A stretch of DNA of 37,849 bases from Candidatus Woesearchaeota archaeon (GCA_964493655.1 CAZBOY010000004.1:1-37849); one strand, 5' to 3'. Counted from the stretch's first letter, positions 2,976-34,299 are shown. A program made the numbers and translations. The notes: generated by a model not told the origin, from the letters alone.

Positions 2976-3152
2976 GCTGACTGATATGTCTTGGCAACTC
3001 TTGCGGAAAATTATCCTTATCTATTTTACTTTTTGGGATAATTTTCACCAGAAGTTTTGCAGAGCAGTAATCATGAATATTTTTAAGAATGTCTTAGTAT
3101 TATTAAATTTAATTTTGATTATTCAAATCTCAAAACGATTTGACTTTTTCAA
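2976..3152 (+). repeat. Repeat family A, copy a (candidate structured RNA or MITE-like element)
   Basis: It has the conserved 5' block GCTGACTGATaTGTCTTGGCAACTCTTG. The hairpin is GAAAATTATCC (3006-3016) / GGATAATTTTC (3036-3046). The conserved 3' block is TTTTGCAGAGCAGTA followed by T-runs. It is homologous to the copies at 16771, 17838(-) and 19105(-). Confidence 0.75.
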
Positions 3153-3834: not shown

Positions 3835-4238
3835 TTTTGTTTTATCTTTCCAATAAAATCATAGAGAATAATTCCAAGGATAATTAGAACAACTGCAACA
3901 GTATAAATCATATGAGTTACTGTAGAGGGATATTCGCTGTTTCTAAATCCTCCAAGTATGAAGAGAAATTCATCAGCCACTAATCCAAGTCCTACTGCAG
4001 ATAATCCCAGATAAAGTTTTTTATGAAAGTTTCCAAAGAGGACTGCAATAAGGACAATTACTAAAATAGTAATCCCATAATAAAAATGATGTAGTTCATA
4101 GCCAAATAACATTAAATCTAAATCATTGTAATAGGTTAATATTCTTGTTATGGTTATTGTTAATATAAAAATTATCAAGAAGCTTAGAAACTTGTTTTTT
4201 ATCTGAAAAGGGTTTTTATTATCGTCTCTTTCTTTCAT
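3831..4238 (-). CDS. Hypothetical multi-pass membrane protein
   Basis: 135 aa with about four hydrophobic helices. It has a 4-nt overlap with the downstream xpf start, which suggests an operon. Confidence 0.55.
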   Translation of the reverse strand: MKERDDNKNPFQIKNKFLSFLIIFILTITITRILTYYNDLDLMLFGYELHHFYYGITILVIVLIAVLFGNFHKKLYLGLSAVGLGLVADEFLFILGGFRNSEYPSTVTHMIYTVAVVLIILGIILYDFIGKIKQK

Positions 4239-4334
4239 GGTTTTCTTAATTTTCGGTTTTATTTAAACTTAATCTTAAACAAATAGAATATAAATCCTTA
4301 TAAAGATATTTGCAGTGATTTTTTTATTAGGGTT

Positions 4335-5075
4335 TTATTTACAATTATCCCAGATAAAATCAAAGAATTTTTTATAGCCGTCTGCAAGTTTTTGATTTTT
4401 CATTACAAACATAAGGGGATTTTCCTGTAATTTTCCAGGTTCTACTCCCACGAATGTCACAACATACGGACCGAAAATATCAACCGTAGTATTACTTGAA
4501 TATTTTTTTGGAAGAAATTTATAAGGTTTTCCAACAATTTTTAAGATTTCTGGTTTTTGTTGTTTTACCTCATAATCAAAAAGATGTTTGAAGTTTATCC
4601 CTAATTTCTTTCTTTCTCTTTCAAAATTTGGGAGAAAATATTGCAGTCTTTCATCAAGCCAGAAGGCTTTTGCACCTAAGAAATAAACAGTTTGTTTTGT
4701 TTTGAGAATGTCTTGGAGATAGTTTTTGAAACCTTCAATTCCTCGATAAAAATAAGCCTCTTCTTTTTCTCCTTGTGATTCAAATTTTTGTGTCATTTCA
4801 AAAAGGGCTTTATTTAATTTTTCTTCTTTTTCTTTTAAAAGTTCTAAAAGCCGTCGAGGATTTATTGGTTTGAAATTTTTCTCTCCTTTTGTAAATGAAT
4901 CTGAGGTAAGGCCTTTTTCTGATAATTTGTTTAGGGCATCATAAACATTTCTACGATGAACTCCTGATTTATTTGAAATTTCTTGCACAGATGCTTCCCC
5001 TGTTTTTAGAAGAGTTTCATAAATCTTTGATTCATTTTGGCTTAGTCCGAGTTCTTTCAATAATTCTTCGTGCAT
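4335..5075 (-). CDS. TrmB-family transcriptional regulator
   Basis: N-terminal winged HTH (LGLSQNESKIYETLLKTGEASVQEISNKSGVHRRNVYDALNKLSEKGL) followed by a coiled-coil and a C-terminal domain. TATA-like box at 5095-5104 on the minus strand. Confidence 0.8.
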   Translation of the reverse strand: MHEELLKELGLSQNESKIYETLLKTGEASVQEISNKSGVHRRNVYDALNKLSEKGLTSDSFTKGEKNFKPINPRRLLELLKEKEEKLNKALFEMTQKFESQGEKEEAYFYRGIEGFKNYLQDILKTKQTVYFLGAKAFWLDERLQYFLPNFERERKKLGINFKHLFDYEVKQQKPEILKIVGKPYKFLPKKYSSNTTVDIFGPYVVTFVGVEPGKLQENPLMFVMKNQKLADGYKKFFDFIWDNCK

Positions 5076-5289: not shown

Positions 5290-5691
5290 ATGGAATCAAA
5301 AAAATTATCAGAACTTCATATACAGGCCGTAGGTCGTCCAGGAAATTTTGCTAGTGTATCTAAATTAGCTAAACTTGTTGAAGAATCAGATATTCAAGTT
5401 TTTTGGAATGAAACAACCAGCAGAGAACCAAAAATGGTTTTAGAGGATTTCGGTCCTTATGCGGAATGTAGGCCTGGGCAGACTGAAGATTTTTATGGTA
5501 AGGATAAAGTTACACAACCTAAATCAAGAGTAGGATATAGTTTACCAAGAAGAAATCCCCGAGAAGGGTCTGAAGAATGTGATGAATATGCAACTTTTAG
5601 TTATGCAGATCAATGGACTGGGATAACTTTTAACTTGCATAAATCAACTTCAGGGTATAGAGAGTTAAGATGCAAATTTAGTTCAGATTGA
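5290..5691 (+). CDS. Hypothetical soluble protein
   Basis: 133-aa ORF preceded by GGAGGT 8 nt upstream. No motif recognised. A 27-codon ORF (5205-5288) with its own AAGGAG lies immediately upstream. Confidence 0.45.
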   Translation: MESKKLSELHIQAVGRPGNFASVSKLAKLVEESDIQVFWNETTSREPKMVLEDFGPYAECRPGQTEDFYGKDKVTQPKSRVGYSLPRRNPREGSEECDEYATFSYADQWTGITFNLHKSTSGYRELRCKFSSD

Positions 5692-7739: not shown

Positions 7740-8476
7740 ATGAGGGTTGCATTTTATAATCAGATGTTTGGATTTGATGGTCGAAGTTTATACACTTTTT
7801 TAAGAGACCATAAGACAATTCATTTTAATAAAACTCCTGATATGGCTTATGTTAGAAGTGAGATTTCTAGAACAATAGATATAATAAAAAAATCAAAAGC
7901 AGAGATAGTTGGAATTTGTGAAATTTTAGAAGGGCAGGAAGAGAAGCTTAGAAAGTTGTTAAAAGAGATTGGATATAAATATGTATTTTTTGGAACAGGG
8001 CATTTATTGACTTGTGGATTAAAAGTTAAGATTGCTCTCGCGTCTAAGCTAAAATGTGTTCAGAAAAATGTTGAGGGTTTTCCAGTTGAGAGTAGAACGG
8101 GGGGGGCGGAGGGATTGTTTCTTGTTATTTTCCTAAGGAGAAATTTTATTTTATTGTCACTCATTTAAGTTTTCCAAAAAGAGAAATGTTTTCAAAACAG
8201 GAAAAATTTGTGAATAATTGTATTAAATCTTTTGGAAAAAGAATTATTCTTGCTGGAGATTTTAATATTGATTATGAAGGCTTAAAAAAATATTTTCCAG
8301 GTCTAGTGTTTCTCTCTGGAAGGATTAAAACTCTTTTTTCTCAGGGTGTTTTGAAATTATGGTCTAACAAAGATGTAGATCATATTCTTGCAAGGGGGAT
8401 TAAAGCTAAGGCTTGCGGATATTTAATAGGATATTCAGACCATAAACTTGTTTGGGCGGATTTAAAATTTGATTAG
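7740..8476 (+). pseudogene. Endonuclease/exonuclease/phosphatase (EEP) family gene, frameshifted at a G8 homopolymer
   Basis: The N-terminal ORF (7740-8168) and C-terminal ORF (8186-8476; GDFN, SDHKLVW motifs) belong to one EEP fold. The second frame is open from 8096. One extra G in the run at 8099-8106 would fuse the two frames. Confidence 0.7.
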
Positions 8477-8802: not shown

Positions 8803-9444
8803 TTAAGCAATAATTAAACTACCGACGAGTAAAAGGCCGGTGATTATAAGGAGTGTTGTCCAAAGAATTTTGCTTCCTGCTAGAATTTTATAGCCGTCTA
8901 ATCCGGATAAGGGAATTATTGACCAGAAAGCATAATAAATGTTTAATTGTGCGAATGTTTGAAATCCAATTATGTAGGAGATTACTGCTACAATTAAATT
9001 TATTGCGATTCCTGTTGTTGCGATTACTGCTACATGGTATTCAACTAATTGACTGAATCTGTAGAGGCCGTGTCTTTTTGAAACTCTTTCTGTTTTTGGT
9101 TGAATGTCAAATTCTAAAATTGCTAGCCACTGCCATGCTCCTTGAGAAATAAGAGAAACTAAAGGTGGAAGCCAGAGCATTGGCATTGGTTTTTTAAAAT
9201 GTGCATATTCTGTAAACCAGAATTGAGACCATTTCCAGAATCTTATTTTTAAATCTGTTTCATAGTAGTAGGCCATTATTTTTTTTGCAATTGTATTAAG
9301 AGAAATTAAAATAAAAAACGAGGTTATCAGGGGGAAGATTAGGGGTTTGCTTAGATAGGAAAAACTAAGTCCGAGAATAACTGCAGCTACAATAATTATG
9401 AGAATTTCTTTCCATTGTTCTTTGAAAATACTGTCTAAACTCAT
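8803..9444 (-). CDS. M50 (site-2 protease)-like membrane protein lacking the HExxH motif
   Basis: Polytopic membrane protein. The C-terminal IIPLSGLDGYKIL matches the M50 NxxPxxxLDG motif. The expected HExxH position reads LNTIAKK. Confidence 0.4.
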   Translation of the reverse strand: MSLDSIFKEQWKEILIIIVAAVILGLSFSYLSKPLIFPLITSFFILISLNTIAKKIMAYYYETDLKIRFWKWSQFWFTEYAHFKKPMPMLWLPPLVSLISQGAWQWLAILEFDIQPKTERVSKRHGLYRFSQLVEYHVAVIATTGIAINLIVAVISYIIGFQTFAQLNIYYAFWSIIPLSGLDGYKILAGSKILWTTLLIITGLLLVGSLIIA

Positions 9445-9822: not shown

Positions 9823-9833
9823 TTGTGTTTTAA

Positions 9834-10064
9834 ATGGAAGAAGATAATAGGGGTTTTATTAGTTATGAAGTGCCTTATAATCCTGAACTTATGTTAAATT
9901 CTATAGTATCTTCTGGGATGACAATTGGGCCTGCAGGGATTATTCGTGATGAGAAGAAAAACCATCAAGGAACTTATAATGATGAAGAATTTACTTTAGA
10001 GGTTCTTAAAAAAGGTTCGCTTCTTGATTGTCTTGCTAAAGAATTGCATCTTATAAGAATATAA
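9834..10064 (+). CDS. Hypothetical protein
   Basis: 76-aa ORF with no motifs recognised. Confidence 0.35.
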   Translation: MEEDNRGFISYEVPYNPELMLNSIVSSGMTIGPAGIIRDEKKNHQGTYNDEEFTLEVLKKGSLLDCLAKELHLIRI

Positions 10065-10169
10065 CTATGAATTTTAATGTAGGATTTTCTAAAAATTAAT
10101 AATAAAAATGTAAGGGGGAAGGTTTGATTTTGATTTTTGAGATGTTTTGGTTTGGAGATATTTTCAGCT

Positions 10170-10186
10170 TCGATGGCGGCGGGGAA
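10170..10186 (+). repeat. 17-nt GC-rich direct repeat TCGATGGCGGCGGGGAA, copy 1
   Basis: Exact copies occur at 12975-12991 and 13666-13682. Confidence 0.9.
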
Positions 10187-10193
10187 CTAAAAC

Positions 10194-10208
10194 CGAAAGA
10201 TTTAATAA
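10194..10208 (+). promoter_or_regulatory. BRE/TATA-like promoter (CGAAAG ATTTAATAA) for the RelE-type TA pair
   Basis: Centred 26 nt upstream of the ATG at 10230. The same ACCGAAAG + TATA arrangement follows repeat copy 2. Confidence 0.5.
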
Positions 10209-10229
10209 TTTCCTTTTTATCTAATTAAT

Positions 10230-10403
10230 ATGGAACAGATGAATGAGTTAAAAAGAAGATTAGATAATTTAACTATAGAGATAACTGTTCTGAAAGATAG
10301 ATTTGAAGATCATTTTTTGACAGAAGAAGAAAAAGGAATGATTGATGAGGCTATTCAGGAGAAAGAAGATGGGCTGTTGATTGATTCTTCGGAAGTTTTC
10401 TAA
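10230..10403 (+). CDS. Putative antitoxin (57 aa, not in the supplied ORF track)
   Basis: Read manually: MEQMNELKRRLDNLTIEITVLKDRFEDHFLTEEEKGMIDEAIQEKEDGLLIDSSEVF. The stop lies 1 nt before the toxin ATG. Confidence 0.6.
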   Translation: MEQMNELKRRLDNLTIEITVLKDRFEDHFLTEEEKGMIDEAIQEKEDGLLIDSSEVF

Positions 10404-10404
10404 A

Positions 10405-10665
10405 ATGTTTTCTTTAAAATTTTCAAACAATGCGGCTAAGTTTATTAAAAAATTGGAGCAAAAATTCAAAGACAGAATTGAAAAGAAAACTAATGAATTG
10501 CAGAAGGTTCCTTTTCCAAGAGATAGTGTTAGGGTTGAAAAATATAAGGATTACAAAGTTTTTAGAGTTCGGGTTGGTCAATTTAGGATTTTGTATAGTG
10601 TTGATTTTAATGAAAAATTAATTATCATAATTGATGTTGGGAAGAGAAGTAATATTTATGATTGA
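10405..10665 (+). CDS. relE: RelE/ParE-superfamily type II toxin
   Basis: 86 aa. The C-terminal FRVRVGQFRILYSVDFNEKLIIIIDVGKRSNIY is typical of RelE-type mRNA interferases. It is tightly coupled to the upstream small ORF. Confidence 0.75.
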   Translation: MFSLKFSNNAAKFIKKLEQKFKDRIEKKTNELQKVPFPRDSVRVEKYKDYKVFRVRVGQFRILYSVDFNEKLIIIIDVGKRSNIYD

Positions 10666-10694
10666 TGCTTGGTGTGGGAAATAAAACAACGAGT

Positions 10695-10822
10695 TGAAAT
10701 AGGCGACTTTGTCGCGCATTATTTATTTTGCCTTCGGCATTTATAATCGCCACAGGGGTTTTGTTTGAGTGGTTTTGGTGTAATTATTTTTGTTTGGGGG
10801 GGCGGTGAAAATTGTGTGAGAG
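10695..10822 (+). repeat. Repeat family B, copy B1 (GC-rich hairpin cluster plus G/T-rich tail)
   Basis: Hairpins GCGAC-TTT-GTCGC (10703-10715) and TGCC-TTCG-GCA (10729-10739), then GGGGTTTTGTTTGAGTGGTTTTGG...GGGGGGGCGGTGAAAATTGTGTGAGAG. Confidence 0.7.
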
Positions 10823-10847
10823 AATATAACCCAAAAAGTGAGTAAAA

Positions 10848-11228
10848 TTATCTATTAAAACGAACTTCATATTCATAAAGATTATCTGTTGTTAATACCC
10901 ATTTAACATTTGTAAGACGTTCTCCACCTAGAGTATATGTTCGGAAACCATTACCCCCTAAATTTACAATAACAAAACCTTGGTAATTTATCCAACCCCT
11001 TTCTCCGTTAGGAAGATTAACTATTTGTAGTTGATTACCTGTTGTGCTTCCTTCGCGATCATAAGGATTAACATTTCTGCTAATTCCTTCTCTCGCAGCA
11101 TGAATTAAAAGTCCGTCTGCAACAGAACGTCCGTAAGGGGTCGGACGACACCCAATTTGTAAGATTGATGCTACGGTAAATAAACTGATGTTTGCTATTT
11201 TCCCGAGCTTGTTTATTAAACTTTTCAT
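10848..11228 (-). CDS. Putative lipoprotein, HAAREG-motif family
   Basis: Signal peptide with lipobox-like LQIGC. It shares the HAAREG motif with the 13868-14341 protein. TATA-like box 26 nt upstream of the ATG at 11228. Confidence 0.55.
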   Translation of the reverse strand: MKSLINKLGKIANISLFTVASILQIGCRPTPYGRSVADGLLIHAAREGISRNVNPYDREGSTTGNQLQIVNLPNGERGWINYQGFVIVNLGGNGFRTYTLGGERLTNVKWVLTTDNLYEYEVRFNR

Positions 11229-11343
11229 TGTATTCAATGAAAACACAGATTTATAAAATTTTCTATTATAAAAACAACAAATCAAAATTATTCCAATCAT
11301 CTCTAAAGAATAGTTTTATAAATTCTATTATATTCTTTACTCC

Positions 11344-11886
11344 ATGTTCAAAAGAGTTGTTAAACGGAGTTTAGTATTTTTGCAGATAAGTATTTTAACC
11401 ATTGGTATACTTGCTTTTTCTTTTATAATTAATTCTACTTTTGTTCAATCAGCAAATGGTAAAGCTCCTTCAACTCTTGATGCAAGTGGGAATCCTTCAT
11501 TGCAGGGAGATATGAGTTCTGGGGATATTCAAAGTGTGGGGGATTTATTTGAAGCTGCTTCAGGATCTTCTGGAACCGATGTTAGTTCAGGGGGTGTATT
11601 ATTGAATATATTAACGGGAGGTTATGGTTTAAGTGGTCTAAGTGGGCTTCCAACTTTAACTAGTGGAGAAAATGCGGGAAATATTTTGGGTAGTAATTCT
11701 GCTAAGGCAGGAATTTCGGAGCTCTCAAAAGATTCTCGTTTTTCAAAATCAGCAACTAACCCTACTGGACCCTTATGGACTCCAAAAGGGGAAAGTGCTT
11801 TGGCAAATAATCTTGTTGTTGGTGCACAATGGGCTATTGCTGCAGGGGCGGGGATTATGGCTGGGAAAATAACCCCTACAAATTGA
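11344..11886 (+). CDS. Short paralog of the N-terminal region of the 783-aa surface protein
   Basis: N-terminal anchor ISILTIGILAFSFIINS versus ISLLIISIFAFGFIFNT. The C-terminal GAQWAIAAGAGIMAGK matches GATWAVA...AAGAGIMAGK in the 14373 protein. The 19-nt string GGGATTATGGCTGGGAAAA is identical in both genes. Confidence 0.55.
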   Translation: MFKRVVKRSLVFLQISILTIGILAFSFIINSTFVQSANGKAPSTLDASGNPSLQGDMSSGDIQSVGDLFEAASGSSGTDVSSGGVLLNILTGGYGLSGLSGLPTLTSGENAGNILGSNSAKAGISELSKDSRFSKSATNPTGPLWTPKGESALANNLVVGAQWAIAAGAGIMAGKITPTN

Positions 11887-11937
11887 TTATTAAAAGTAAG
11901 GGGAAAAGCTTAAAAATACCTTTTTCTTTAATTTTTG

Positions 11938-12948
11938 ATGGTGTACATACATGTAAAAAGAATTGGGGATAAGAACTATTATACCTTAAGAATCTCGGTT
12001 AGAGAGGGTAATAAAGTTATAACAAAAGATTTGTGCAATCTTGGATCAGACATAACAAAAATAAATATAGACAATCTTGAAAATAAATATAAAAAAGAGA
12101 TTAGAAAATCCTATAAAACCATTAAAAAATTTTTAGATTCAAATTATTACCTTGAAAAAATTAAAAAATTAAAACTTAAGAGTGATGTTTATTTCAAAAA
12201 AGAACAACTCGAAAATATCGAGGCTATTCAGTTGCATTTTAATTCAAAATTTAAGAAATTAAATAAACTAACTCAAGAAGAAGCTTTTGAAAACTTTTTA
12301 ATAAATTTTGCAGTTAATAGCACCTCAATTGAAGGGAACACTATTACATTTAAGGAAGCTGAGCGACTTTTAAAAGAAGAGATTATACCTAAAAATAGGA
12401 CCTTAAGAGAGGTTTATGATTTGACAAACACAAAAAAAGTTTGGACATTTCTTCAGAAAGAAAAACCAAAAATTAATTTGAATTTAATTGAAGGAATTCA
12501 CGATAGATTATTAGAAAATATTGATAACAGAAAAGGGTTTAGAAATCATGATATAAAAATATTGGGCCAGCCATTCAAACCATCTCCTGCAAGATATGTT
12601 AGGGATGACTTGAAAATTTTATTAAATTGGTATCAAAAAAATAAGAAAAATTTCCACCCCCTTGCATTGATTGCTTTTTTTCATCATAAGTTTGAAAATA
12701 TCCATCCATTTTCAGATGGTAATGGCCGGACAGGAAGAATATTAATAAATTATATTCTTATCTCACTGAACTATCCCCCTTTGATTATTTCAAGAAGATT
12801 TAGAAAAGAATATTTAGATTCAATGAATCAGGCAGATAAGTCTCTAAATCAAAGTTTATTGAACACTGATTTAAAATCTTATGCAAAACTGTTGAATTTT
12901 ATTTATTCTCAATTTAAGTATTCTTATTGGGACTTATTTCTTTTTTGA
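11938..12948 (+). CDS. fic: Fic/DOC family protein (AMPylase-type) with an intramolecular inhibitory motif
   Basis: Fic core HPFSDGNGRTGR. An upstream STSIEG fits the (S/T)xxxE(G/N) inhibitory helix motif. TATA-like box about 24 nt upstream. Confidence 0.85.
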   Translation: MVYIHVKRIGDKNYYTLRISVREGNKVITKDLCNLGSDITKINIDNLENKYKKEIRKSYKTIKKFLDSNYYLEKIKKLKLKSDVYFKKEQLENIEAIQLHFNSKFKKLNKLTQEEAFENFLINFAVNSTSIEGNTITFKEAERLLKEEIIPKNRTLREVYDLTNTKKVWTFLQKEKPKINLNLIEGIHDRLLENIDNRKGFRNHDIKILGQPFKPSPARYVRDDLKILLNWYQKNKKNFHPLALIAFFHHKFENIHPFSDGNGRTGRILINYILISLNYPPLIISRRFRKEYLDSMNQADKSLNQSLLNTDLKSYAKLLNFIYSQFKYSYWDLFLF

Positions 12949-12974
12949 TTGTCTATTCTGATGCTCTATCTGCG

Positions 12975-12991
12975 TCGATGGCGGCGGGGAA
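12975..12991 (+). repeat. 17-nt GC-rich direct repeat, copy 2 (21-nt identity with copy 3)
   Basis: TGCGTCGATGGCGGCGGGGAA is shared with copy 3. It is followed by ACCGAAAGG and the TATA-like AATAAATAC, 25 nt upstream of the ATG at 13038. Confidence 0.9.
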
Positions 12992-13037
12992 AAGTTAAGA
13001 CCGAAAGGAATAAATACTAAATTTCTTTTTTTATTGT

Positions 13038-13319
13038 ATGGATGAAAACAAACTAAAGTCTAAGATTTTAAAGATACTTGTAAAGAATAATGTAGTTAGG
13101 GCTGGGCTTTTTGGTTCTTATGCTCGTGGCGAAGAGAATAAAAATAGTGATATTGATATTCTTATAGAATTTGAAGGAGATAAAAGTTTGCTTGATTTGG
13201 TTGGATTAAAAATTGCTTTAGAGGAAAGTTTGAAGAAGAAAGTCGATATCCTTACCTATAAGTCTCTGCACCATCTTCTTAAAAAAAGAATCTTAGAAGA
13301 AGAGGTAAAAATATTATGA
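13038..13319 (+). CDS. mntA: MNT-type nucleotidyltransferase antitoxin
   Basis: GLFGSYARGEENKNSDIDILIEF (the GS...DxD motif of the pol-beta NTase fold). It overlaps the downstream gene by 4 nt. Confidence 0.85.
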   Translation: MDENKLKSKILKILVKNNVVRAGLFGSYARGEENKNSDIDILIEFEGDKSLLDLVGLKIALEESLKKKVDILTYKSLHHLLKKRILEEEVKIL

Positions 13320-13654
13320 AAAAGGAAGATGATATCTATCTTAAACATGTTTTAGAATCTATTTCTGATATTGAAAAATCCCTTAAAAATATCTCTAAGG
13401 AAAACTTTTCTAAAAATAAAGATGTTCAAGATGCTATAATCAGGAGAATTGAAATAATTGGAGAAGCAATAAAAAATATTTCTGAGAAAACTAAAAAGAA
13501 GTATCCTGAAACTGAATGGAAGAAAATTGCAGGAACAAGAGATGTTTTAATTCATTCTTATTTTAGTGTTGATATTGATTTGGTTTGGGAAATTGTCCAA
13601 AGAGATTTACCTATACTAAAGAAGCAGATCAAGGATATATTAAACAAGATTTAA
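13316..13654 (+). CDS. hepT: HepT (DUF86) HEPN-type toxin
   Basis: Rx4HxY motif in RDVLIHSY. Size and pairing with the upstream MNT gene fit. Confidence 0.85.
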   Translation: MKKEDDIYLKHVLESISDIEKSLKNISKENFSKNKDVQDAIIRRIEIIGEAIKNISEKTKKKYPETEWKKIAGTRDVLIHSYFSVDIDLVWEIVQRDLPILKKQIKDILNKI

Positions 13655-13665
13655 TTTTGAGTGCG

Positions 13666-13682
13666 TCGATGGCGGCGGGGAA
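13666..13682 (+). repeat. 17-nt GC-rich direct repeat, copy 3
   Basis: Exact TCGATGGCGGCGGGGAA, 12 nt after the hepT stop and immediately upstream of element B2. Confidence 0.9.
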
Positions 13683-13689
13683 TTAAACT

Positions 13690-13800
13690 TAACAACAAAC
13701 TGAAGTCGGCAACTTTGTCGCTTGTTATAGGACGCGCCTGGCGGCGCTAAGTCGCCTTCGGCGATTTGTGAGTGTTGCAGGGTTTTGTTGTTGTGGGGTT
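13690..13800 (+). repeat. Repeat family B, copy B2
   Basis: The outer arms AACAACAAA / TTTGTTGTT enclose three hairpins: GGCAAC-TTT-GTCGC (13708-13721), GCGCC-TGGC-GGCGC (13734-13747) and TCGCC-TTCG-GCGA (13752-13764). A G/T-rich tail follows. Confidence 0.7.
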
Positions 13801-13867
13801 TTTAGTGATTTGTAACTATTTTTAGGTAATCGCAAACTTTAAAAAACATGTTTGTTGTATGTGGGTT

Positions 13868-14341
13868 ATGAGAAAAACACTAACAAAAATAATTGGCGGG
13901 ATTTCCCTTGTAGCTTCGTCTTTTTTGCCTCTTGGTTGCATCCCATCAGAAGACCAGGGTGTGAATGATGCCCGGCTTCTTGGTTTTGGCCTTGCTGGGA
14001 TTGCAGCGACAACAAATAATCCAGACACAGCGAGGGCGGCGGCTTTGGGTGCTGATCTTGCGAATAGGCGAGGTGATGATCTCGCGAGTTATCATGCGGC
14101 TCGGGAGGGGAGGAGTACTGTTACTGTGAATGTTAATAGTCAAAATAATGATTCAAAACCTAATGTTACTGGTCCGATAATTGTAGTAGATGGAGAAAAA
14201 CTTCATTATGTTGATGAAAATGGAAAATGGTATTATGCAGATAGAAATGAGGATAAAGGAACTTTTTTTTATGTTGATCCTTCAAAAGGTTTTATGTCAG
14301 TTCCATCCCCAAATAAAGGCTTTATTTCTATGAATAGATAA
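13868..14341 (+). CDS. Putative lipoprotein, HAAREG-motif family
   Basis: Signal peptide with lipobox-like LPLGC. It has the motif YHAAREG. TATA-like box 25 nt upstream of the ATG at 13868; an alternative ATG is at 13859. Confidence 0.55.
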   Translation: MRKTLTKIIGGISLVASSFLPLGCIPSEDQGVNDARLLGFGLAGIAATTNNPDTARAAALGADLANRRGDDLASYHAAREGRSTVTVNVNSQNNDSKPNVTGPIIVVDGEKLHYVDENGKWYYADRNEDKGTFFYVDPSKGFMSVPSPNKGFISMNR

Positions 14342-14372
14342 TATTTATAAACATCTTTACTCTTAGTTATTT

Positions 14373-16724
14373 ATGTTACAAAAACGAGGGATAATTTCAC
14401 TCTTTGAGATTAGTTTATTAATAATCTCTATTTTTGCATTCGGTTTTATATTTAATACAAACTTAGTTGAAGCTGGTACTGGGAAATGGATTATTGAAAA
14501 AACAGGAGAAGGGGGTTATAATGCACGGGGATTAGGTGTTGGAGAAAACCCCCTTGGCCAAGAAGTATTTAGTAGTAAAGAAGCAGCAGATAATAAAATA
14601 TTTTCTTTTTGGAAAGGAAATAAAGTTTCATCAACAGCGACACCCACTCCAGCAAGTATTGCAGCTGCAACTAAAAGCACAACCAACACTTTTAAAGTTA
14701 TCAAAGATTTGGTAATTACTCCTCAAGGGGGAAATGCTATTTCATTAGCAAAAAATTCTAAGTTTACTTTAGATGGAAACATTTTAACTTATGGTGGAAA
14801 GACATATACAATAGATAATAGTGAAATAAATAAATTAGTCAACACCGGACTTATTGAAAAGCAAGCTGTTGCAGGTTCTCAAGTCTCAACCCTCTTCGGA
14901 AAAATGAATTGGGGATGGGGGCATATTATTCAGGGGGCGACTTGGGCTGTTGCTGTTGTTGGAGCTATTCAGCTTCTTGGTCCGATTATGGGATTAAAGC
15001 AAGAAACAACAAATACTCTTTCTATTGCAGCAGGGGCAGGGATTATGGCTGGGAAAACAGCATGGACTCTTTGGGGAAAACAGGGAGTTTGGCCTGGAAA
15101 AATCGGTGGGGGGTTGGTTGGTGGTAAAGGACAATTTCCAATTGGCGCTACAGGAATCGGCATCGGAACAGCTGTTCTAGTTTTCATCCTCTTGTACAAA
15201 GAAACAGAATATCGTATTGTAACATTTAATTGCAGGCCTTGGCAAGCTCCGGTTTCGGGAGATGATTGTGAAAAATGCAACAGCGAGATACTTCCTTGTT
15301 CTGAATATAGATGTAAGGCACTTGGGCAGAGCTGTGAGCTTGTTAATCCTGGAACAGAAGAGGAAAGATGTATTAATGCTTATCGCGGGGATACTGAACC
15401 ACCTGTGCTGACTCCTGATGAAAATGTGCTGACTGTTGGGCATTCTTATAAAAATGTTAAGAAACTTCCACCAGGTCCTGGATTTACAATTGCTCGTGAT
15501 GATTCTGCTGATGGATGTATTAAAGCATTTACACCTCTTAGTTTTGGATTTACATCGCTAGAGCCTGCCCAGTGTAAAATAGACCGTGAGAGTACAGACC
15601 AGGTTGGAAAAGATGCATTTGATGCAATGTCTTACTGGGTTGGTGGGAGTAATTTGTATAAGTACAATCACACAGAAGTTTTCTCTTTACCTGGACCTGC
15701 GAATCTTGCTGGTGAAAATTTAACAATTACCAATGACGGTCAATGGACATTTTTCGTTCGTTGTCGGGACTTTAATGGAAATGAAAATGAGGCAGAATAT
15801 GCAATTAGGTTTTGTGTTGACCCGTCACCAGATACTACCCCCCCTGTTGTAATGGCAACTTCAATGGAGAATAATGGTTATGTTCCGGCAGATACTGATA
15901 AGGCAAATGTTGATTTTTATATAAATGAACCTTCAACTTGTAAGTGGAGTTTTGAAGACCAGAGTTATGTATCAATGGAAAACACAATGGTTTGTGCAGG
16001 GCAAGTTTATGAAATGAATTCCATGTTGCTTTATACTTGTAAAACCGAGCTCACTGGAATTTCGCGAGATGGAAGTGATTATTTCATAAGATGTAAAGAC
16101 CAGCCAGGCAAACCTGAAAATGACAGAATGGTAATGCAAAATAGTTTTAAATTTTCATTAACAGGAACTACACAATTAATAATTAGAAATCTTCAACCAA
16201 ATGAAACAATCTACGGCTCGACAGACCCTGCAAAAATAGAGTTGAGTGTTGAAACTTTGTTTGGTGCTGAAAATGGAAAGTCGATTTGCTTTTATTCTAC
16301 AACTGATAATGACGGGGATTATATAAAATTCTTTGATACCGGGGATGTTGTGCATAAGCAGAGACAAGACCTGACAACAGGAGATTATGTTTATTATTAC
16401 AAGTGTGTTGATGCAGGCGGGAATGTTGCAAAGGACTCAACTTCATTTAGTGTTGTTGTCGACACTTCTGCACCTGTTGTTGCGCGTGTTTATGAAGAGG
16501 CAGGGAAGTTGAAACTTGTAACTGTGAAAAATTCTGAGTGTGCATATACTTTTGATAATTGTGATTTTACTTTTGAAGAAGGAACTAATATGCCGACAGC
16601 AGGAACAAAGATGCATATTGCTGATTGGAAACAAGACAAAACTTATTATATAAAATGCAGAGATGAATTCAAAAATGAAGAAGCTGATTGTGCTATTGTT
16701 GTGAGGCCTAGTCGGAAGTTGTGA
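14373..16724 (+). CDS. Large membrane-anchored cysteine-rich surface protein with four tandem ~100-aa repeats
   Basis: N-terminal anchor and about three further hydrophobic/Gly-rich helices (aa ~185-275). A Cys-knot-like segment follows (CRPWQ...CEKCNSEILPCSEYRCKALGQSCE). There are four repeats ending FFVRCRDFNGNEN, YFIRCKDQPGKPEN, YYYKCVDAGGNVA and YYIKCRDEFKNEE. Confidence 0.7.
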   Translation: MLQKRGIISLFEISLLIISIFAFGFIFNTNLVEAGTGKWIIEKTGEGGYNARGLGVGENPLGQEVFSSKEAADNKIFSFWKGNKVSSTATPTPASIAAATKSTTNTFKVIKDLVITPQGGNAISLAKNSKFTLDGNILTYGGKTYTIDNSEINKLVNTGLIEKQAVAGSQVSTLFGKMNWGWGHIIQGATWAVAVVGAIQLLGPIMGLKQETTNTLSIAAGAGIMAGKTAWTLWGKQGVWPGKIGGGLVGGKGQFPIGATGIGIGTAVLVFILLYKETEYRIVTFNCRPWQAPVSGDDCEKCNSEILPCSEYRCKALGQSCELVNPGTEEERCINAYRGDTEPPVLTPDENVLTVGHSYKNVKKLPPGPGFTIARDDSADGCIKAFTPLSFGFTSLEPAQCKIDRESTDQVGKDAFDAMSYWVGGSNLYKYNHTEVFSLPGPANLAGENLTITNDGQWTFFVRCRDFNGNENEAEYAIRFCVDPSPDTTPPVVMATSMENNGYVPADTDKANVDFYINEPSTCKWSFEDQSYVSMENTMVCAGQVYEMNSMLLYTCKTELTGISRDGSDYFIRCKDQPGKPENDRMVMQNSFKFSLTGTTQLIIRNLQPNETIYGSTDPAKIELSVETLFGAENGKSICFYSTTDNDGDYIKFFDTGDVVHKQRQDLTTGDYVYYYKCVDAGGNVAKDSTSFSVVVDTSAPVVARVYEEAGKLKLVTVKNSECAYTFDNCDFTFEEGTNMPTAGTKMHIADWKQDKTYYIKCRDEFKNEEADCAIVVRPSRKL

Positions 16725-16770
16725 GAATAAAATTAATTTTTAGTAATCATAAAATTGTTTGTAGAGTTAG

Positions 16771-16930
16771 AGCAGGGGTTTTATCTTGGCAACTCTTGAA
16801 GAAAATCTTTCAGGTTTATTTTATGATTGGGAAGATTTTCCGCAAAGGTTTTGAAGAGCAGTAGATACGAATCTTTTATAAAAATGTTTAGAGATTAACA
16901 AATTTAAAATTCATTTTGACTTTTTCAATA
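16771..16930 (+). repeat. Repeat family A, copy b
   Basis: ATCTTGGCAACTCTTGAA, hairpin GAAAATCTTTC (16801-16811) / GGAAGATTTTC (16830-16840), TTTTGAAGAGCAGTA, and the ATTTTGACTTTTTCAA tail shared with copy a. Confidence 0.75.
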
Positions 16931-16979
16931 GATTTCTAATAACAACAAACTTTAAATATCTTGTTTTCTATTTAAGAAA

Positions 16980-17135
16980 ATGAATAAAAATGCAGGTGTG
17001 TTGTGGTTGAGGATTTTGGGGGCTGGGTGTGGGAGCACGGGATTTGTATTGTTAGCGGTTGGTGGGCAAATAAATAATGTTATTGGTGCAGGGTTGGTAG
17101 GTATTGGAACTGTGCTGATTGCGTCAGGAGCTTAA
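16980..17135 (+). CDS. Small Gly-rich 2-TM membrane protein (51 aa, not in the ORF track)
   Basis: Read manually: MNKNAGVLWLRILGAGCGSTGFVLLAVGGQINNVIGAGLVGIGTVLIASGA. The TATA-like CTTTAAATATC is centred 25 nt upstream. Confidence 0.45.
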   Translation: MNKNAGVLWLRILGAGCGSTGFVLLAVGGQINNVIGAGLVGIGTVLIASGA

Positions 17136-17136
17136 G

Positions 17137-17301
17137 ATGATTAGTGAAAATATAATGCAGGTGATAAATATAATTGTTTTAATAGTTATGTTTGGGAGTT
17201 TGTCTTATGTGGTCTATAAAAGGAAGTTTGATGTATCTATTGGAATTGGATTAATAATTGTGGTTTACATAATATTTAAATATGTGCTGAATATATTTTA
17301 A
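17137..17301 (+). CDS. Small 2-TM membrane protein
   Basis: The ATG is 1 nt after the previous stop. The sequence is hydrophobic (MISENIMQVINIIVLIVMFGSLSYVVYKRKF...). The stop is 1 nt before the next ATG. Confidence 0.45.
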   Translation: MISENIMQVINIIVLIVMFGSLSYVVYKRKFDVSIGIGLIIVVYIIFKYVLNIF

Positions 17302-17302
17302 T

Positions 17303-17794
17303 ATGGTATTGTTTGACTGGCCGATATTTACAGAGGGGATTTTACCTTTCTTACTTGTGTTTGTTTTGATATTTGCGATTTTGCAAAAGAGTAAGATTCT
17401 TGGCGACGGGAAGGCGCAGATTGATGCACTTATTAGTTTGGCGATTTCACTTATTTTATTAACTGTTCCTGTTGCGCGGGATATTGTTGTTGGATTAACT
17501 CCTTGGCTTGCTGTTGGAACTGTTGTGATTTTGGTTTTCTTTATTTTATATGGTTTTGTTGCAGGAGATTTGTCTGCGGGAAATATGCCTAAAGGATTGA
17601 AAATTGCTTTTGGGGTTTTAGCAGCTGTTTTTGTTTTTGGAGTTGTGGTTTATGTTACTGGGTTTTGGTCGACTATTGAAGGATGGTTTTCAGGAGATAG
17701 TGGTTTGTTTGCAAATATTTTTATGTTGTTAATTATTGGCGGGGCTGTTGCTGTTGCTGTTGCAACTGGGAAAAAGGGTGGCGATAAGGGGTAG
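17303..17794 (+). CDS. Paralogous multi-pass membrane protein 1 (FAILQK family)
   Basis: LPFLLVFVLIFAILQKSKILGDGK is shared with the two downstream paralogs. There are about four TM helices. Confidence 0.6.
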   Translation: MVLFDWPIFTEGILPFLLVFVLIFAILQKSKILGDGKAQIDALISLAISLILLTVPVARDIVVGLTPWLAVGTVVILVFFILYGFVAGDLSAGNMPKGLKIAFGVLAAVFVFGVVVYVTGFWSTIEGWFSGDSGLFANIFMLLIIGGAVAVAVATGKKGGDKG

Positions 17795-24034: not shown

Positions 24035-24301
24035 ATGACTTTTAAGAAAGGATTTTGGCATAGATATTATAAAGCAAAAAGATTATCTGGAGAAAAATTT
24101 TTCAAAAATAGATTTAAAAATATTGAGATGGTTATTTTTGCTTTCTTAGTAGCAATTGTTCTCTCTTTTGCAGATGATTTATTTATCTTTAATAGAGGAC
24201 TAAATCCCTCAACTAAAACAAAATTTTTGGTTGTAATTTTTATAATATCTGTTCAATTATATAGACATTTTTTATATAAGAAATATTATCCTAAGGTTTA
24301 A
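24035..24301 (+). CDS. Small basic membrane protein
   Basis: Basic N-terminus followed by two hydrophobic helices. Confidence 0.4.
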   Translation: MTFKKGFWHRYYKAKRLSGEKFFKNRFKNIEMVIFAFLVAIVLSFADDLFIFNRGLNPSTKTKFLVVIFIISVQLYRHFLYKKYYPKV

Positions 24302-24304
24302 ATT

Positions 24305-24410
24305 TGTCCCAAAAACAAGACTTAAGTCCAAAAAATGAGACAAGATTAAGAGAAAGGTTTAAATAATCTTTTTGTCTCAAAAAAGGGACTTAAGTCTATA
24401 AAATGGGACA
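24305..24410. promoter_or_regulatory. Two copies of a 38-bp composite palindrome TGTCyC-N8-GACTTAAGTC-N8-GrGACA (candidate operator)
   Basis: The perfect 10-bp palindrome GACTTAAGTC occurs at 24319-24328 and 24387-24396. The second unit overlaps the ATG (24403) of the HTH-NTase gene. The TATA-like GGTTTAAATAAT lies between the two units. Confidence 0.55.
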
Positions 24411-24900
24411 GAATGTTGATAAGATTTTAGAGGTTTTTTACGAAAATCCTGGAAAGAGTTTTACTGTTCGAGAGTTGACTAAACTGACTAAAGTTCCTCG
24501 GGCAACTCTTCATAAAAAACTTTTGGATTTGAAAAAACAGAGATTGATTACAAAGGAGAACAAAGCAGAGAGTAATTTGTTGTTTGAAGCAAAGAAAATT
24601 AATTATTTTATCGAAAAAGTTATTGATTCTGGTTTGATGGATGAACTAATTAAAAATCTTAATCCTTCTGCGATTGTTTTGTTTGGGGGGATTAGGAAAG
24701 GAGAATCTGACAAAGAAAGTGATATTGATTTATTTGTTGAGAGTTCGATTGAAAAGGAATTAGATTTGAGTAATTTTGAGAAAAAACTGAAACATAAGAT
24801 TGATTTGTTTGTTAAACCAAGTATTAAGAATTTTCATGAGGGTTTATTTAATAATATTCTTAATGGGATTAAATTATATGGGAGTATTAAGATAAAATGA
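24403..24900 (+). CDS. wHTH-fused nucleotidyltransferase (MNT-like antitoxin)
   Basis: N-terminal wHTH (FTVRELTKLTKVPRATLHKKLLDLKKQRLI). NTase motif in VLFGGIRKGESDKESDIDLFVE. Confidence 0.7.
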   Translation: MGQNVDKILEVFYENPGKSFTVRELTKLTKVPRATLHKKLLDLKKQRLITKENKAESNLLFEAKKINYFIEKVIDSGLMDELIKNLNPSAIVLFGGIRKGESDKESDIDLFVESSIEKELDLSNFEKKLKHKIDLFVKPSIKNFHEGLFNNILNGIKLYGSIKIK

Positions 24901-25322
24901 ATTTGATGCCTTGGGAATTATGTGAAAGAGATTTTATTAAAATTGTAAAGAGGGATGATGAACGAATTAAGACAATAATCAAGATGGCTTTGAAGAGGTT
25001 AGATAAAATTAAGAGATATAAAATGGAAGATGAGATTTCTTTTATTGTAGAAGATTATTATGAGATTATAAAAGAACTTTTAGTGGCTTATTTACTTAAA
25101 AATGGATTGAGATCAAAAAACCATCAGTGTTTGATTAGTTATTTTTATAAGAAAAATCCTCAATATGAAAGAGAGGTCCAGATTATTTCTCAGATGAGTT
25201 ATTTTAGGAACCGATTGAATTATTATGGGGATGCTATTCCAAAAAAGTTTTATGAAACTCATGAGAAAGAGTTTAAGAAGATAATTAAATTGTTATTTGG
25301 GGTTTTAGAGGTGAAGGGATGA
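24897..25322 (+). CDS. HEPN-domain protein (toxin partner)
   Basis: It overlaps the NTase gene by 4 nt. The protein is all-helical and has the YFRNRLNYYG motif typical of HEPN partners of NTases. Confidence 0.6.
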   Translation: MNLMPWELCERDFIKIVKRDDERIKTIIKMALKRLDKIKRYKMEDEISFIVEDYYEIIKELLVAYLLKNGLRSKNHQCLISYFYKKNPQYEREVQIISQMSYFRNRLNYYGDAIPKKFYETHEKEFKKIIKLLFGVLEVKG

Positions 25323-31367: not shown

Positions 31368-32285
31368 ATGGACAAAAAAGTAAATTTCTCTTATGAGAAA
31401 TTTTCATGTTTTCCAAAACCTCTGCGGTTTTGTAAAAGAGGAAGTGAGAAGTATTATATTCTTATTTCAATTATCCTAGGGATTATGATTTTAGCTTTGT
31501 CTTTGTTTTATATTTTTCACGAGTTTTTTACAAGTGAAGAGTTGGATTGGGAGAGTTGTCGGCAGAGTATTGTTCTGAGGAATACAATGCCTACTGCAAG
31601 CAGACTTGCGACAGTTAAAATTGAACAGCTAAAAAACCAATTTCCATTAAAATGTAAGACTCAGGTTATAAACCTTGATTGGGACGATAAGAAAGGTTCT
31701 GATGGGGATGATAATTATAAACAAAATATAGATTTTTTCATAAAGACTATTGCAGATAATATGGCTCAGTGTTGGTCTCTTGTTGGGGAAGGAAAATATA
31801 ATATTTTTCCCTCGAACATTATTACACAAAAAAAGAATTGCATAATTTGTGCAAGAATACATTTTAGTGAAGAAGCTATAAAAAAAATCTCCCCTGATTC
31901 AACCTCTAAATATACTCCCCTATTTATTAGGGAATATTTAGCTACTCATGATATTAATGGAAATTTGCTTTCAACTAATGAAATTAATGAGTTTATGAAT
32001 TTTGAAAAGATAAGTAAGAATAGTCTTGCAAATTTTTTACGTTATAGTACGTCGGATTTTTTTATATTTTTAGATGATAATAATTGGGAATCTGGTAAAT
32101 ATGGTATGAGATTTGCAATTAGCCCTTTAGATGGAGATATTTTTATTGGAAGCTATTTTTATACTAATAATAATGTTGAATTGGCATGGCCCCCTGTTGT
32201 TAAATACTCTTATGCCTATCCTTTTTTTGCACAAGTTGGAAAAGATGATATTAGTTCGTGTAGTATAGAATCAATCCCAGCCTAA
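31368..32285 (+). CDS. Pilin-like protein with the extended conserved leader SCFPKPLRFCKRG
   Basis: MDKKVNFSYEKFSCFPKPLRFCKRG is followed by SEKYYILISIILGIMILALSLFYIF. TATA-like box 24 nt upstream. Confidence 0.65.
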   Translation: MDKKVNFSYEKFSCFPKPLRFCKRGSEKYYILISIILGIMILALSLFYIFHEFFTSEELDWESCRQSIVLRNTMPTASRLATVKIEQLKNQFPLKCKTQVINLDWDDKKGSDGDDNYKQNIDFFIKTIADNMAQCWSLVGEGKYNIFPSNIITQKKNCIICARIHFSEEAIKKISPDSTSKYTPLFIREYLATHDINGNLLSTNEINEFMNFEKISKNSLANFLRYSTSDFFIFLDDNNWESGKYGMRFAISPLDGDIFIGSYFYTNNNVELAWPPVVKYSYAYPFFAQVGKDDISSCSIESIPA

Positions 32286-32288
32286 AAA

Positions 32289-32705
32289 ATGAAAAACAAA
32301 AACCACTTAGATGCCTCAAAAAGATACTCCTGCTTCCCAAAACCTCTGCGGTTTTGCAAAAGAGGCGACATAGTATATCAGACAATTACTCATCTTATTT
32401 TGATAACTCTTATTTTTGCTATTTTCTTTCTTGCTGCAACAAGCAAGGTTACATCTAAGGTTGTGAAGCAACAGGTTCTGGAAAAGCAGACTGCCTTGTT
32501 GATTGATGCTGCTGATAAGGGGATGACTTTTATTATTGATAAGACTTATCTTGAGGGTGGAACAATTGGGAATATTGAATTAAAACAAGGCAGGGTTTTT
32601 GTTTATATTGCTGGACAGGGGTTTAGTAAAGGATATCCTTATTTTTCTCGTTATGATGTGAGTTTGGTAAAAGAGGAGGACAGATATCTGATAAAAATAG
32701 GATGA
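32289..32705 (+). CDS. Pilin-like protein with the extended conserved leader SCFPKPLRFCKRG
   Basis: MKNKNHLDASKRYSCFPKPLRFCKRG is followed by DIVYQTITHLILITLIFAIFFLAA. Confidence 0.65.
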   Translation: MKNKNHLDASKRYSCFPKPLRFCKRGDIVYQTITHLILITLIFAIFFLAATSKVTSKVVKQQVLEKQTALLIDAADKGMTFIIDKTYLEGGTIGNIELKQGRVFVYIAGQGFSKGYPYFSRYDVSLVKEEDRYLIKIG

Positions 32706-33436: not shown

Positions 33437-33731
33437 ATCATTTTCGAAGAAGGCAGTTGTAGGAGCTTCTATAGCTACGATAATTGTAACAATTGCAATT
33501 GTTTTATTATTAGTTGTTTATGCAATTCTTGGGGTAATTGTTAAGAACACTCGTGGGGCTCCTAAAGAATTTAATTCTCAATTAAAAGAAAGCGAGAAGC
33601 TTGAGATAGAATTTAATAATTATTTTTCTAATTTTAAGAAATTGACAAAAGCGAGAAAAATGATTTGGCTTGAAAATACTAATGTTGATGCAGCTTTACA
33701 AATCACTGGATGGGGGAAAAATGAAAAATAA
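33426..33731 (+). CDS. Small pilin-like protein
   Basis: MNFKSFSKKAVVGASIATIIVTIAIVLLLVVYAILG. It overlaps both neighbouring genes by about 11 nt. Confidence 0.5.
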   Translation: MNFKSFSKKAVVGASIATIIVTIAIVLLLVVYAILGVIVKNTRGAPKEFNSQLKESEKLEIEFNNYFSNFKKLTKARKMIWLENTNVDAALQITGWGKNEK

Positions 33732-34299
33732 AAAAGCAAATTTCTCTTATGAGAAATTTTCATGTTTTCCAAAACCTTTGCGGTTTTGTAAACGCGGACA
33801 GTTTTTTGCACTTTATTTGTTTGTCTTAACTTTGTTTATGTGTGGTTTGTCTTTTGTTATTTATTCTATTCAACAAGAAGATATGGAGAATACAATTGTG
33901 TCTCCTATGCCTGTGCTTCAACTTCAAGATGAACAAGAGCTTTTTGAAATTTCCGAGGGTGTTTTAATTAAAAATTCTGTTTGTGAGTTTAAATATAGAG
34001 ATTATAATCAAGATTTATCTGAGGAGATTAAACAACAAATATTGTATAGGTATTATGGAGAATTATTTGCTTTTTTATTTGCAGATACTTATAAGACTTC
34101 CACAGATGGAGGCGATTTAGAATTATTAGCAAGTTTCTATAGTGTTAGTCAATCTGGAAAAAATGTTGTTGTTAAAAGAAGAGCAAAGATTAACAGAAAT
34201 TTAATTCCCTTAGAAATAAAAGGAAAGAATAATTTTCCTGTAAAACTTGAATGGGTTTTTGAAAAAACTTATAATATAAATTTGAAGGATTGTTCTTAA
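33721..34299 (+). CDS. Pilin-like protein with the extended conserved leader SCFPKPLRFCKRG
   Basis: MKNKKANFSYEKFSCFPKPLRFCKRG is followed by QFFALYLFVLTLFMCGLSFVIYSI. Confidence 0.65.
   Translation: MKNKKANFSYEKFSCFPKPLRFCKRGQFFALYLFVLTLFMCGLSFVIYSIQQEDMENTIVSPMPVLQLQDEQELFEISEGVLIKNSVCEFKYRDYNQDLSEEIKQQILYRYYGELFAFLFADTYKTSTDGGDLELLASFYSVSQSGKNVVVKRRAKINRNLIPLEIKGKNNFPVKLEWVFEKTYNINLKDCS

Follow-up and report, generated by a model that had tools for sequence, protein, structure and literature searches.

Perfect direct repeats of 15-55 nucleotides (nt) flanking integrated elements are the usual attachment (att) signature in archaea (PMC4158269), and it is already known both that direct repeats flank acquired DNA and that toxin-antitoxin (TA) modules travel as mobile cassettes (PMC4158269, PMC9668308). 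How the tiny-genome DPANN archaea acquire and shuffle their defence and TA genes is poorly understood. Here we analyse a 37,849-nt stretch of Candidatus Woesearchaeota archaeon (GCA_964493655.1 CAZBOY010000004.1:1-37849), referred to as the window throughout, and in it an exact GC-rich 17-mer, TCGATGGCGGCGGGGAA (A), which occurs in three copies (A1, A2 and A3) at the edges of two small TA operons, relBE (with a ParE/RelE toxin) and mntA-hepT. A decayed fourth copy (A') and two copies of a ~110-nt repeat (B1 and B2) accompany it. Judging from sequence comparison, A most likely marks the seams of a mosaic TA island.

Archaeal att-core repeats, such as those of SSV-, pNOB8- and pTN3-type integrases and of genomic islands, resemble A in that perfect short repeats bracket acquired DNA, within a lineage-specific island and with hybrid-looking junctions in which different flanks surround a shared core. 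However, the units bracketed in the window measure 0.5-0.7 kb, no integrase lies in or beside the cassettes, the target is not a tRNA gene (ARAGORN, Rfam), and three identical cores plus a decayed one form an array-like series instead of one pair. Integron cassettes and clusters of attC sites lacking an integron integrase (CALINs), including the archaeal ones (PMC9668308), are likewise small, follow each other in series and in the same orientation with a repeat after each, and carry TA cargo with its own promoters; their recombinase may also act in trans. Unlike these, the locus shows no attC architecture (R''/R' boxes, folded bottom strand), no IntI and no attI, and its recurring element is a non-palindromic GC-rich core of 17-27 nt. 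Mobile promoters (PMC3575422) and promoters borne by miniature inverted-repeat transposable elements (MITEs) similarly place a short conserved sequence 5' of non-homologous operons. In the window, however, the B recognition element (BRE) and TATA box are part of the cassette, being kept in a homologous cassette (L142, see below) that has no 17-mer, and just 17 + 8 nt are common to the two upstream regions.

What is unusual is the combination of promoter-bearing units of 0.5-0.7 kb, a serial, non-palindromic GC-rich core of 17-27 nt, a terminator-like partner, the lack of integron features and a DPANN host. Upstream activating sites of archaeal transcription factors (Ptr2, Lrp and TrmB type) sit just 5' of BRE/TATA. 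This is also where A is found, although A has no dyad symmetry, its spacing to the promoter varies, and two of its four copies have no promoter after them.

The 17-mer and the two toxin-antitoxin operons

All three exact copies are intergenic and lie on the + strand (Table 1). An exact scan together with Pfam gene calls returned them, and the genes around them, at every position given in the preliminary description. No further match was found in the window on either strand at up to three mismatches (chance expectation 0.02), and three matches were reached in none of 100 shuffles. A Hamming scan of the window returned no copies at 1-4 mismatches, and the next best sequences, at 5-6 mismatches, were background. 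The motif has a GC content of 71%, compared with ~33% for the window (27-41% per kb), in agreement with the earlier remark that the repeat is GC-rich in AT-rich DNA. The whole + strand is rich in G: almost every 1-kb bin shows positive GC skew (about zero in bin 4001-5000), and the cumulative skew climbs almost steadily across the window, independent of gene orientation. Weak G-rich matches on the + strand are therefore inflated.

The edges of A are sharp. Identity between A2 and A3 extends to 21 nt (100%; 12971-12991 = 13662-13682) through four extra bases, TGCG, that A1 does not have, and A1 and A3 are 92% identical over 25 nt. A 3' flank of the form NTAAA(A)C is common to A1, A3 and A', A2 being without it. 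Apart from these few adjoining bases, the NTAAA(A)C flank and the BRE, the 40-nt flanks of the three copies are on both sides no more similar than shuffled sequence. Sharp edges with flanks at random level indicate that A is a discrete unit and not the best-kept part of an old segmental duplication.

Each TA operon lies between two copies, relBE between A1 and A', and mntA-hepT between A2 and A3, the 17-mer of A3 beginning 12 nt past the HepT stop codon. The copies are spaced 2805 nt and 691 nt apart, the latter being the distance from A2 to A3, start to start; the enclosure of mntA-hepT by the second and third copies had been recognised before, as had B2 after the third copy, which is homologous to B1 on the 3' side of ParE. 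Local alignment of the A'-B1 junction with the A3-B2 junction gave a score of 34, compared with 17.9 ± 2.6 in shuffles (reached in 0 of 500), and the best alignment crosses the end of the 17-mer (GGGAAATAA--AACAACGAG...GGCGACTTTGTCGC versus GGGAATTAAACTTAACAACAAAC...GGCAACTTTGTCGC). As A' occupies the place after relBE that A3 occupies after mntA-hepT, both operons share the layout A - BRE/TATA - TA genes - A(') - B. The two A-B units differ by about 24-28%, while the three A copies are identical, which implies either recent copying of A or strong constraint on it.

The octamer ACCGAAAG has two occurrences in the window, 5 and 8 nt past A1 and A2, respectively; both end exactly 30 nt ahead of the operon ATG, with an A/T box after them. 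Most genes of the window have a TTTATAAA-type box 20-30 nt 5' of the ATG, several with GAAAG ahead of it. By its sequence and position, ACCGAAAG is the predicted BRE-like element of two ordinary archaeal promoters, and the spacing of the TTTATAAA-type boxes indicates leaderless transcripts, including those predicted for both TA operons. The promoter link proposed in the preliminary description was therefore right in substance. The two operons are predicted type II TA modules, with three Pfam domains above gathering cut-offs: the ParE/RelE toxin matches PF05016 (E = 6.9e-10), MNT matches PF01909 (1.6e-18), and HepT matches PF01934 (5.8e-29). Neither the 57-aa antitoxin nor the minimal MNT has a recognisable DNA-binding domain.

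Homologous cassettes and the island

A search with ParE revealed homologous cassettes in three other gene contexts, L142, L147 and L148 (79-80% identical in nucleotide sequence, 78-83% in the ParE protein). With at least four gene contexts known, the module evidently moves. On L142, another contig, the 80% nucleotide homology spans window positions 10192-10663 only: it starts at the first base of ACCGAAAG, 5 nt past A1, and ends at the ParE stop, where A' begins, so that the repeats do stand at the cassette boundaries, as had been claimed. The promoter of the L142 cassette is the same as that in the window (ACCGAAAAGCTTAATAAT...ATGGAACAGAT), yet there is no 17-mer 5' of its BRE, where the sequence reads GAATGCTGGGTGGTCGAGTGTGTG, and neither A' nor B follows its ParE stop. 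Similarity upstream of the BRE is marginal (score 24 versus 17 ± 2.7, reached in 12 of 500 shuffles). As the L142 promoter exists without A, the promoter is to be counted as part of the cassette, and A and B as part of its surroundings, contrary to the earlier suggestion of a MITE-borne promoter. On this comparison, A would be a property of the seams and not of the cassettes. Even the closest homologues of HepT do not exceed 72% identity, and no A or B was found downstream of HepT in L140, the closest HepT homologue locus examined.

The L142 contig also bears on the history of the ~3.1-kb block that extends from A' to the end of B2. Past its ParE stop, 74 nt (5453-5526) match window positions 13802-13876, right after B2 and into the start of the next gene, which encodes a lipoprotein (73% identity, blastn E = 3.5e-5). 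The local score is 37, compared with 14.5 ± 2.6 in shuffles, and the 13802 stretch is the best match of this L142 segment in the whole window (46 versus 39 for the runner-up). With moderate confidence, we suggest from these matches that the 3.1 kb were inserted into a once contiguous ParE-lipoprotein junction. The L142 gene that follows ParE has a promoter and start homologous to those of the window's lipoprotein gene, the rest of its protein being unrelated.

The contig comes from an archaeon: among its products are a Hef-type helicase, with named homologues in Pacearchaeota, Nanoarchaeia or "archaeon" records, an ERCC4 nuclease, TrmB, aEF-1beta, RPA-like OB folds, an archaeal prepilin peptidase and a pilus ATPase. 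The host is an AT-rich DPANN-type archaeon, Pacearchaeota/Nanoarchaeia-like. Two relatives, L135 and L136 (Hef 72% identical), are syntenic with the window on both sides of a region comprising a 76-aa open reading frame (ORF), the ParE cassette, lipoprotein genes, Fic, MNT-HepT and a gene for a 783-aa surface protein. In both relatives this whole region, 9823-17302, is missing and the PRC gene directly adjoins the homologue of the pilin-like gene that starts at 17303; the island genes have no match in L135 or L136. The outer borders of the island carry no A, and neither A nor B was found in the Hef-syntenic relatives L135-L139.

Table 1. Features of the TA island and their coordinates in the window
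Feature	Coordinates	Strand	Description
Lineage-specific island	9823..17302		Between PRC-barrel gene and pilin-like gene cluster
Copy A1	10167..10191	+	Exact 17-mer 10170-10186; extended 25-nt stretch 92% identical to A3
ParE-operon promoter	10192..10208	+	Predicted; BRE-like ACCGAAAG 10192-10199; TATA-like TTTAATAA 10201-10208
Type II TA operon (predicted)	10230..10665	+	57-aa antitoxin 10230-10403; ParE/RelE toxin 10405-10665
A'	10662..10680	+	Decayed 17-mer TTGATGCTTGGTGTGGGAA; overlaps ParE stop codon; followed by ATAAAAC, then B1
~3.1-kb block	10664..13802		A'-B1, two secreted-protein genes, Fic, A2-MNT-HepT-A3-B2
B1	10681..10790	+	~110-nt repeat unit; small hairpins GCGACTTTGTCGC and GCCTTCGGC; T/G-rich tail; terminator-like
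Copy A2	12971..12991	+	Exact 17-mer 12975-12991; 21 nt identical to A3
mntA-hepT promoter	13000..13017	+	Predicted; BRE-like ACCGAAAG 13000-13007; AATAAATA 13010-13017
MNT-HepT pair	13038..13654	+	MNT 13038-13319; HepT 13316-13654
Copy A3	13662..13687	+	Exact 17-mer 13666-13682; fused to B2
B2	13688..13802	+	B1 homologue with 18-nt insertion; ends in T run

Candidate explanations for the repeat

Our preferred reading, a tentative one, is that A may serve a recombinase encoded elsewhere as an att-like crossover core, or may at least be a GC-rich patch of short homology. We infer recombination at A, the existence of the recombinase and an order of events as follows: small promoter-bearing modules would be joined at the A core into an "A-B" landing unit (A plus the ~110-nt terminator-like repeat); a circular or linear donor with one A would recombine with a chromosomal A, giving A-promoter-TA-A-B; the insertion bracketed by the 21-nt perfect pair (mntA-hepT) would have come last, and the one bracketed by A1 and A' (relBE) earlier, A' having already decayed; and the enzyme would act in trans, being encoded outside the window. 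Conservative recombination regenerates identical cores with unrelated flanks and brackets the insert, so the arrangement fits a crossover core. The sharing of TGCG by A2 and A3, and of NTAAA(A)C by A1, A3 and A', also fits the pattern expected of hybrid attL/attR-type junctions.

Several observations weigh against a crossover core. A has no dyad symmetry, whereas the cores of tyrosine and serine recombinases are usually symmetric. Of the pair around relBE, A1 is perfect and A' decayed, which needs either constraint or later conversion at A1. The L142 cassette, being without A, did not move by an A-dependent route, and the homology of L142 to the 13802 stretch is only moderately supported. Pfam searches with the window's 50 main ORFs turned up neither a recombinase nor a transposase or Cas1, so that the absence of a recombinase from the window noted in the preliminary description stands; there is no integrase within the cassettes, which hold TA genes alone, nor in the 38-kb window.

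Two further points on the same side come from public collections, in which neither further copies of the 17-mer nor variation in the presence of mntA-hepT turned up. A scan of GTDB genomes for A gave 86 matches, all of them single chance matches, nearly all bacterial with one on a Bathyarchaeota contig, and none in a DPANN genome. Apart from chance matches, a scan of JGI metagenome contigs recovered nothing beyond copies 1 and 3, from the same organism; however, this collection is incomplete, as it missed the JGI contig Ga0265594_1024745 (L003), on which copies 2 and 3 are found, and negatives from it are therefore weak. Four scans of IMG/VR (for A, B and A-B) gave chance matches or none. That A was not found outside the locus in these incomplete collections counts weakly against the crossover core. 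The same-species set consists of 23 contigs under 11 sample or run accessions, colinear with the window, at least 99.5% identical and essentially clonal; within it there is no presence/absence variant of mntA-hepT or relBE, no empty site and no excised form. The contig ends of one sample near copy 2 overlap by 10 nt only, suggesting that coverage breaks here, not that the graph branches. Of the gain by recombination proposed earlier, a part that holds is insertion at a lineage-specific hot spot, the island being missing in syntenic relatives; the recombinase was not found in the window, nor the polymorphism in the 23 contigs.

A wider form of the crossover-core reading, which we consider quite improbable, is that the locus represents an undescribed, non-integron type of cassette capture in DPANN archaea, with a recombinase acting in trans, serial insertion at a 17-27-nt core and an A-cassette-A-cassette-A-B array. 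The modules, proposed to be TA pairs, Fic and surface-protein genes, would have been inserted one after another at the core that heads the A-B unit. If true, a 17-27-nt core mediating serial cassette insertion without integron machinery would represent a novel, compact way to capture genes, and A would also be a sequence tag for finding such islands. Under any reading of A, the data are three copies from one clonal population, which for now makes a well-documented lead, not a discovery.

The alternative that survives best, although it is on the unlikely side, is that A is a cis-regulatory site (activating site or operator) through which a host transcription factor co-regulates the two TA operons, the copy after hepT being a by-product or driving a B2 transcript. 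A position 5-8 nt 5' of the BRE in two non-homologous operons is typical of archaeal activators, and a perfect A beside flanks at random level fits purifying selection. The lack of a recognisable DNA-binding domain in the 57-aa antitoxin and the minimal MNT points the same way, as does a third MNT/HEPN pair in the window, which has no A but has a helix-turn-helix (HTH)-fused MNT and its own duplicated operator. If A is a transcription-factor site, the host would co-regulate TA modules whose antitoxins cannot bind DNA. However, the homologous L142 promoter does without A; the gap between A and BRE is 5 nt in one operon and 8 nt in the other, a difference of 3 nt; A3 and A' have no BRE/TATA after them, A3 lying ~145 nt 5' of the TATA-like box of the next gene and 177 nt from its ATG; and the lack of dyad symmetry is unexpected here too. 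Moreover, point mutation cannot yield three identical 17-mers, so a copying mechanism would still be needed. The shared operator that had been offered as an alternative is weakened by these findings.

It is unlikely that A is the 5' end of a small MITE-like, non-autonomous repeat, A-B, of about 130-140 nt with a terminator-like hairpin, of which the solo A copies at the promoters would be truncated copies or short gene-conversion patches without a role of their own. Such a unit would account for the homology of A'-B1 and A3-B2 across the A/B junction and for a terminal inverted repeat of B2 that matches at 10 of 11 nt (AACAACAAAC / GTTTTGTTGTT). In addition, another dispersed repeat of ~125 nt has four copies in the window and none in relatives, so small repeats proliferate here. 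Yet just two A-B units are known, with none in the relatives or viral contigs scanned; no target-site duplication was seen, and the counterpart of the inverted repeat in B1 is weak. A MITE-like unit would also leave unexplained why solo A is perfect while A' has decayed along with B1, and why, in two TA cassettes, solo A lies precisely at the edge of the promoter.

Two further explanations are very improbable, and both turn on the nature of B. One is that the locus is an archaeal integron fragment (CALIN), with B1 and B2 as attC sites and the TA pairs as integron cassettes, as "integron-like" in the preliminary description implied; the other is that A-B is a small structured RNA gene serving as an integration target, as tRNA genes do, A'-B1 being the displaced, decayed copy at the island end and A3-B2 the reconstituted functional one. 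A repeat of ~110 nt with hairpins does follow each TA pair, the small hairpins and T-rich sequence having been flagged by a terminator scan, and Archaea, Nanoarchaeota (DPANN) among them, do have integrons and CALINs. A structured RNA, in turn, could be seen in the whole-unit direct repeats at both ends of the 3.1-kb block, in the higher GC content and stability of B2 relative to B1, and in one compensatory change between B1 and B2 in the GCCTTCGGC hairpin, noted by sequence inspection. However, neither B element folds significantly better than shuffled sequence (B2 -49.8 kcal/mol, z = -1.4; B1 z = +0.6), and the two-sequence alignment of B1 and B2 gives a weak consensus structure (-7.45 kcal/mol) without covariation, which speaks against both attC sites and an RNA gene. 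A both-strand regex search for RYYYAAC...GTTRRRY pairs 50-150 nt apart found none at B1 or B2, the sole pair in the window being at 9039-9105; no IntI was found in the window ORFs scanned; and the conserved element is a non-palindromic 17-mer on the 5' side, which is not an attC feature. The integron label is therefore not supported. As for an RNA gene, an Rfam search gave no match at gathering thresholds nor at E <= 10, there is no consistent upstream BRE/TATA, and the corresponding position in L142 is without such a unit.

Four simpler identities were tried for A and dismissed: a tRNA or an att site in a tRNA fragment (ARAGORN finds no tRNA in the window, and the reverse complement is superficially acceptor-like without a T-arm); coding sequence (no consistently open or conserved frame crosses A, apart from a trivial ATG-GCG-GCG-GGG mini-ORF of 5-6 codons); a clustered regularly interspaced short palindromic repeat (CRISPR; the spacings of 2805 and 691 nt are not 25-50 nt, and there is no cas domain and no CRISPR-DR match in Rfam); and a C/D-box small RNA (spacing and box patterns do not fit).

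Further features of the window

The third MNT/HEPN pair (24293-25322; HTH-fused MNT 24403-24900, HEPN 24897-25322) has no 17-mer. Its promoter/operator block is tandemly duplicated (24303-24361 and 24371-24429, 73% identical), with AAGGTTTAAAT repeated exactly. Its genes are extra ones between the pilus ATPase gene, which ends at 22758, and a 726-aa gene, which starts at 25461; this interval holds a 71-aa gene alone in the relative L136. Another TA cassette, PIN-MazE, was found in L137 (13700-14400) with its own promoter, between the arginase and M16 peptidase genes, which in the window, L135 and L136 adjoin or overlap each other. It is flanked by an imperfect direct repeat, GAGTGGTTTGTAGG / GAGTGGTGTGAATAGG, which may be due to chance.

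The dispersed repeat mentioned above, family "C" (~125 nt, 69-78% identical), lies at 2989-3112 (+), 16784-16907 (+), 17956-17837 (-) and 19223-19101 (-). Each copy ends in a TATA-like TTTTATAAAAATG and occupies an intergenic spacer that L135-L139 either lack or have only as a short stretch. MITE-like in appearance, the family may carry a promoter.

Among the surface-protein genes of the island, the lipoproteins encoded after B1 (10848-11300, -) and after B2 (13859-14341, +) are paralogues with a HAAREG motif. A 36-nt repeat, 94% identical between 11834-11869 and 15022-15057, encodes AIAAGAGIMAGK, which is located near the C-terminus of a 180-aa protein in the one case and inside the 783-aa protein in the other; a similar motif closes the 164-aa protein of L142. 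AIAAGAGIMAGK may be a membrane-anchor or sorting signal shared by the island surface proteins.

Upstream of the island, the Exo_endo_phos gene (7740-8476) is split into ORFs of 142 aa and 96 aa, while it is intact in L137 (296 aa). A same-species contig, L167 (ERZ27248965; 1-237), diverges wholly 5' of window position 8259, inside the split gene, reflecting either a structural variant or an assembly chimera. Far downstream of the island, a 69-nt repeat (31374-31442, 32298-32366 and 33730-33798; 65-94% identical) accompanies three successive genes without assigned function, lying at the 5' end or close to it; its copies are probably paralogous N-terminal coding segments, signal or pilin-like in type.

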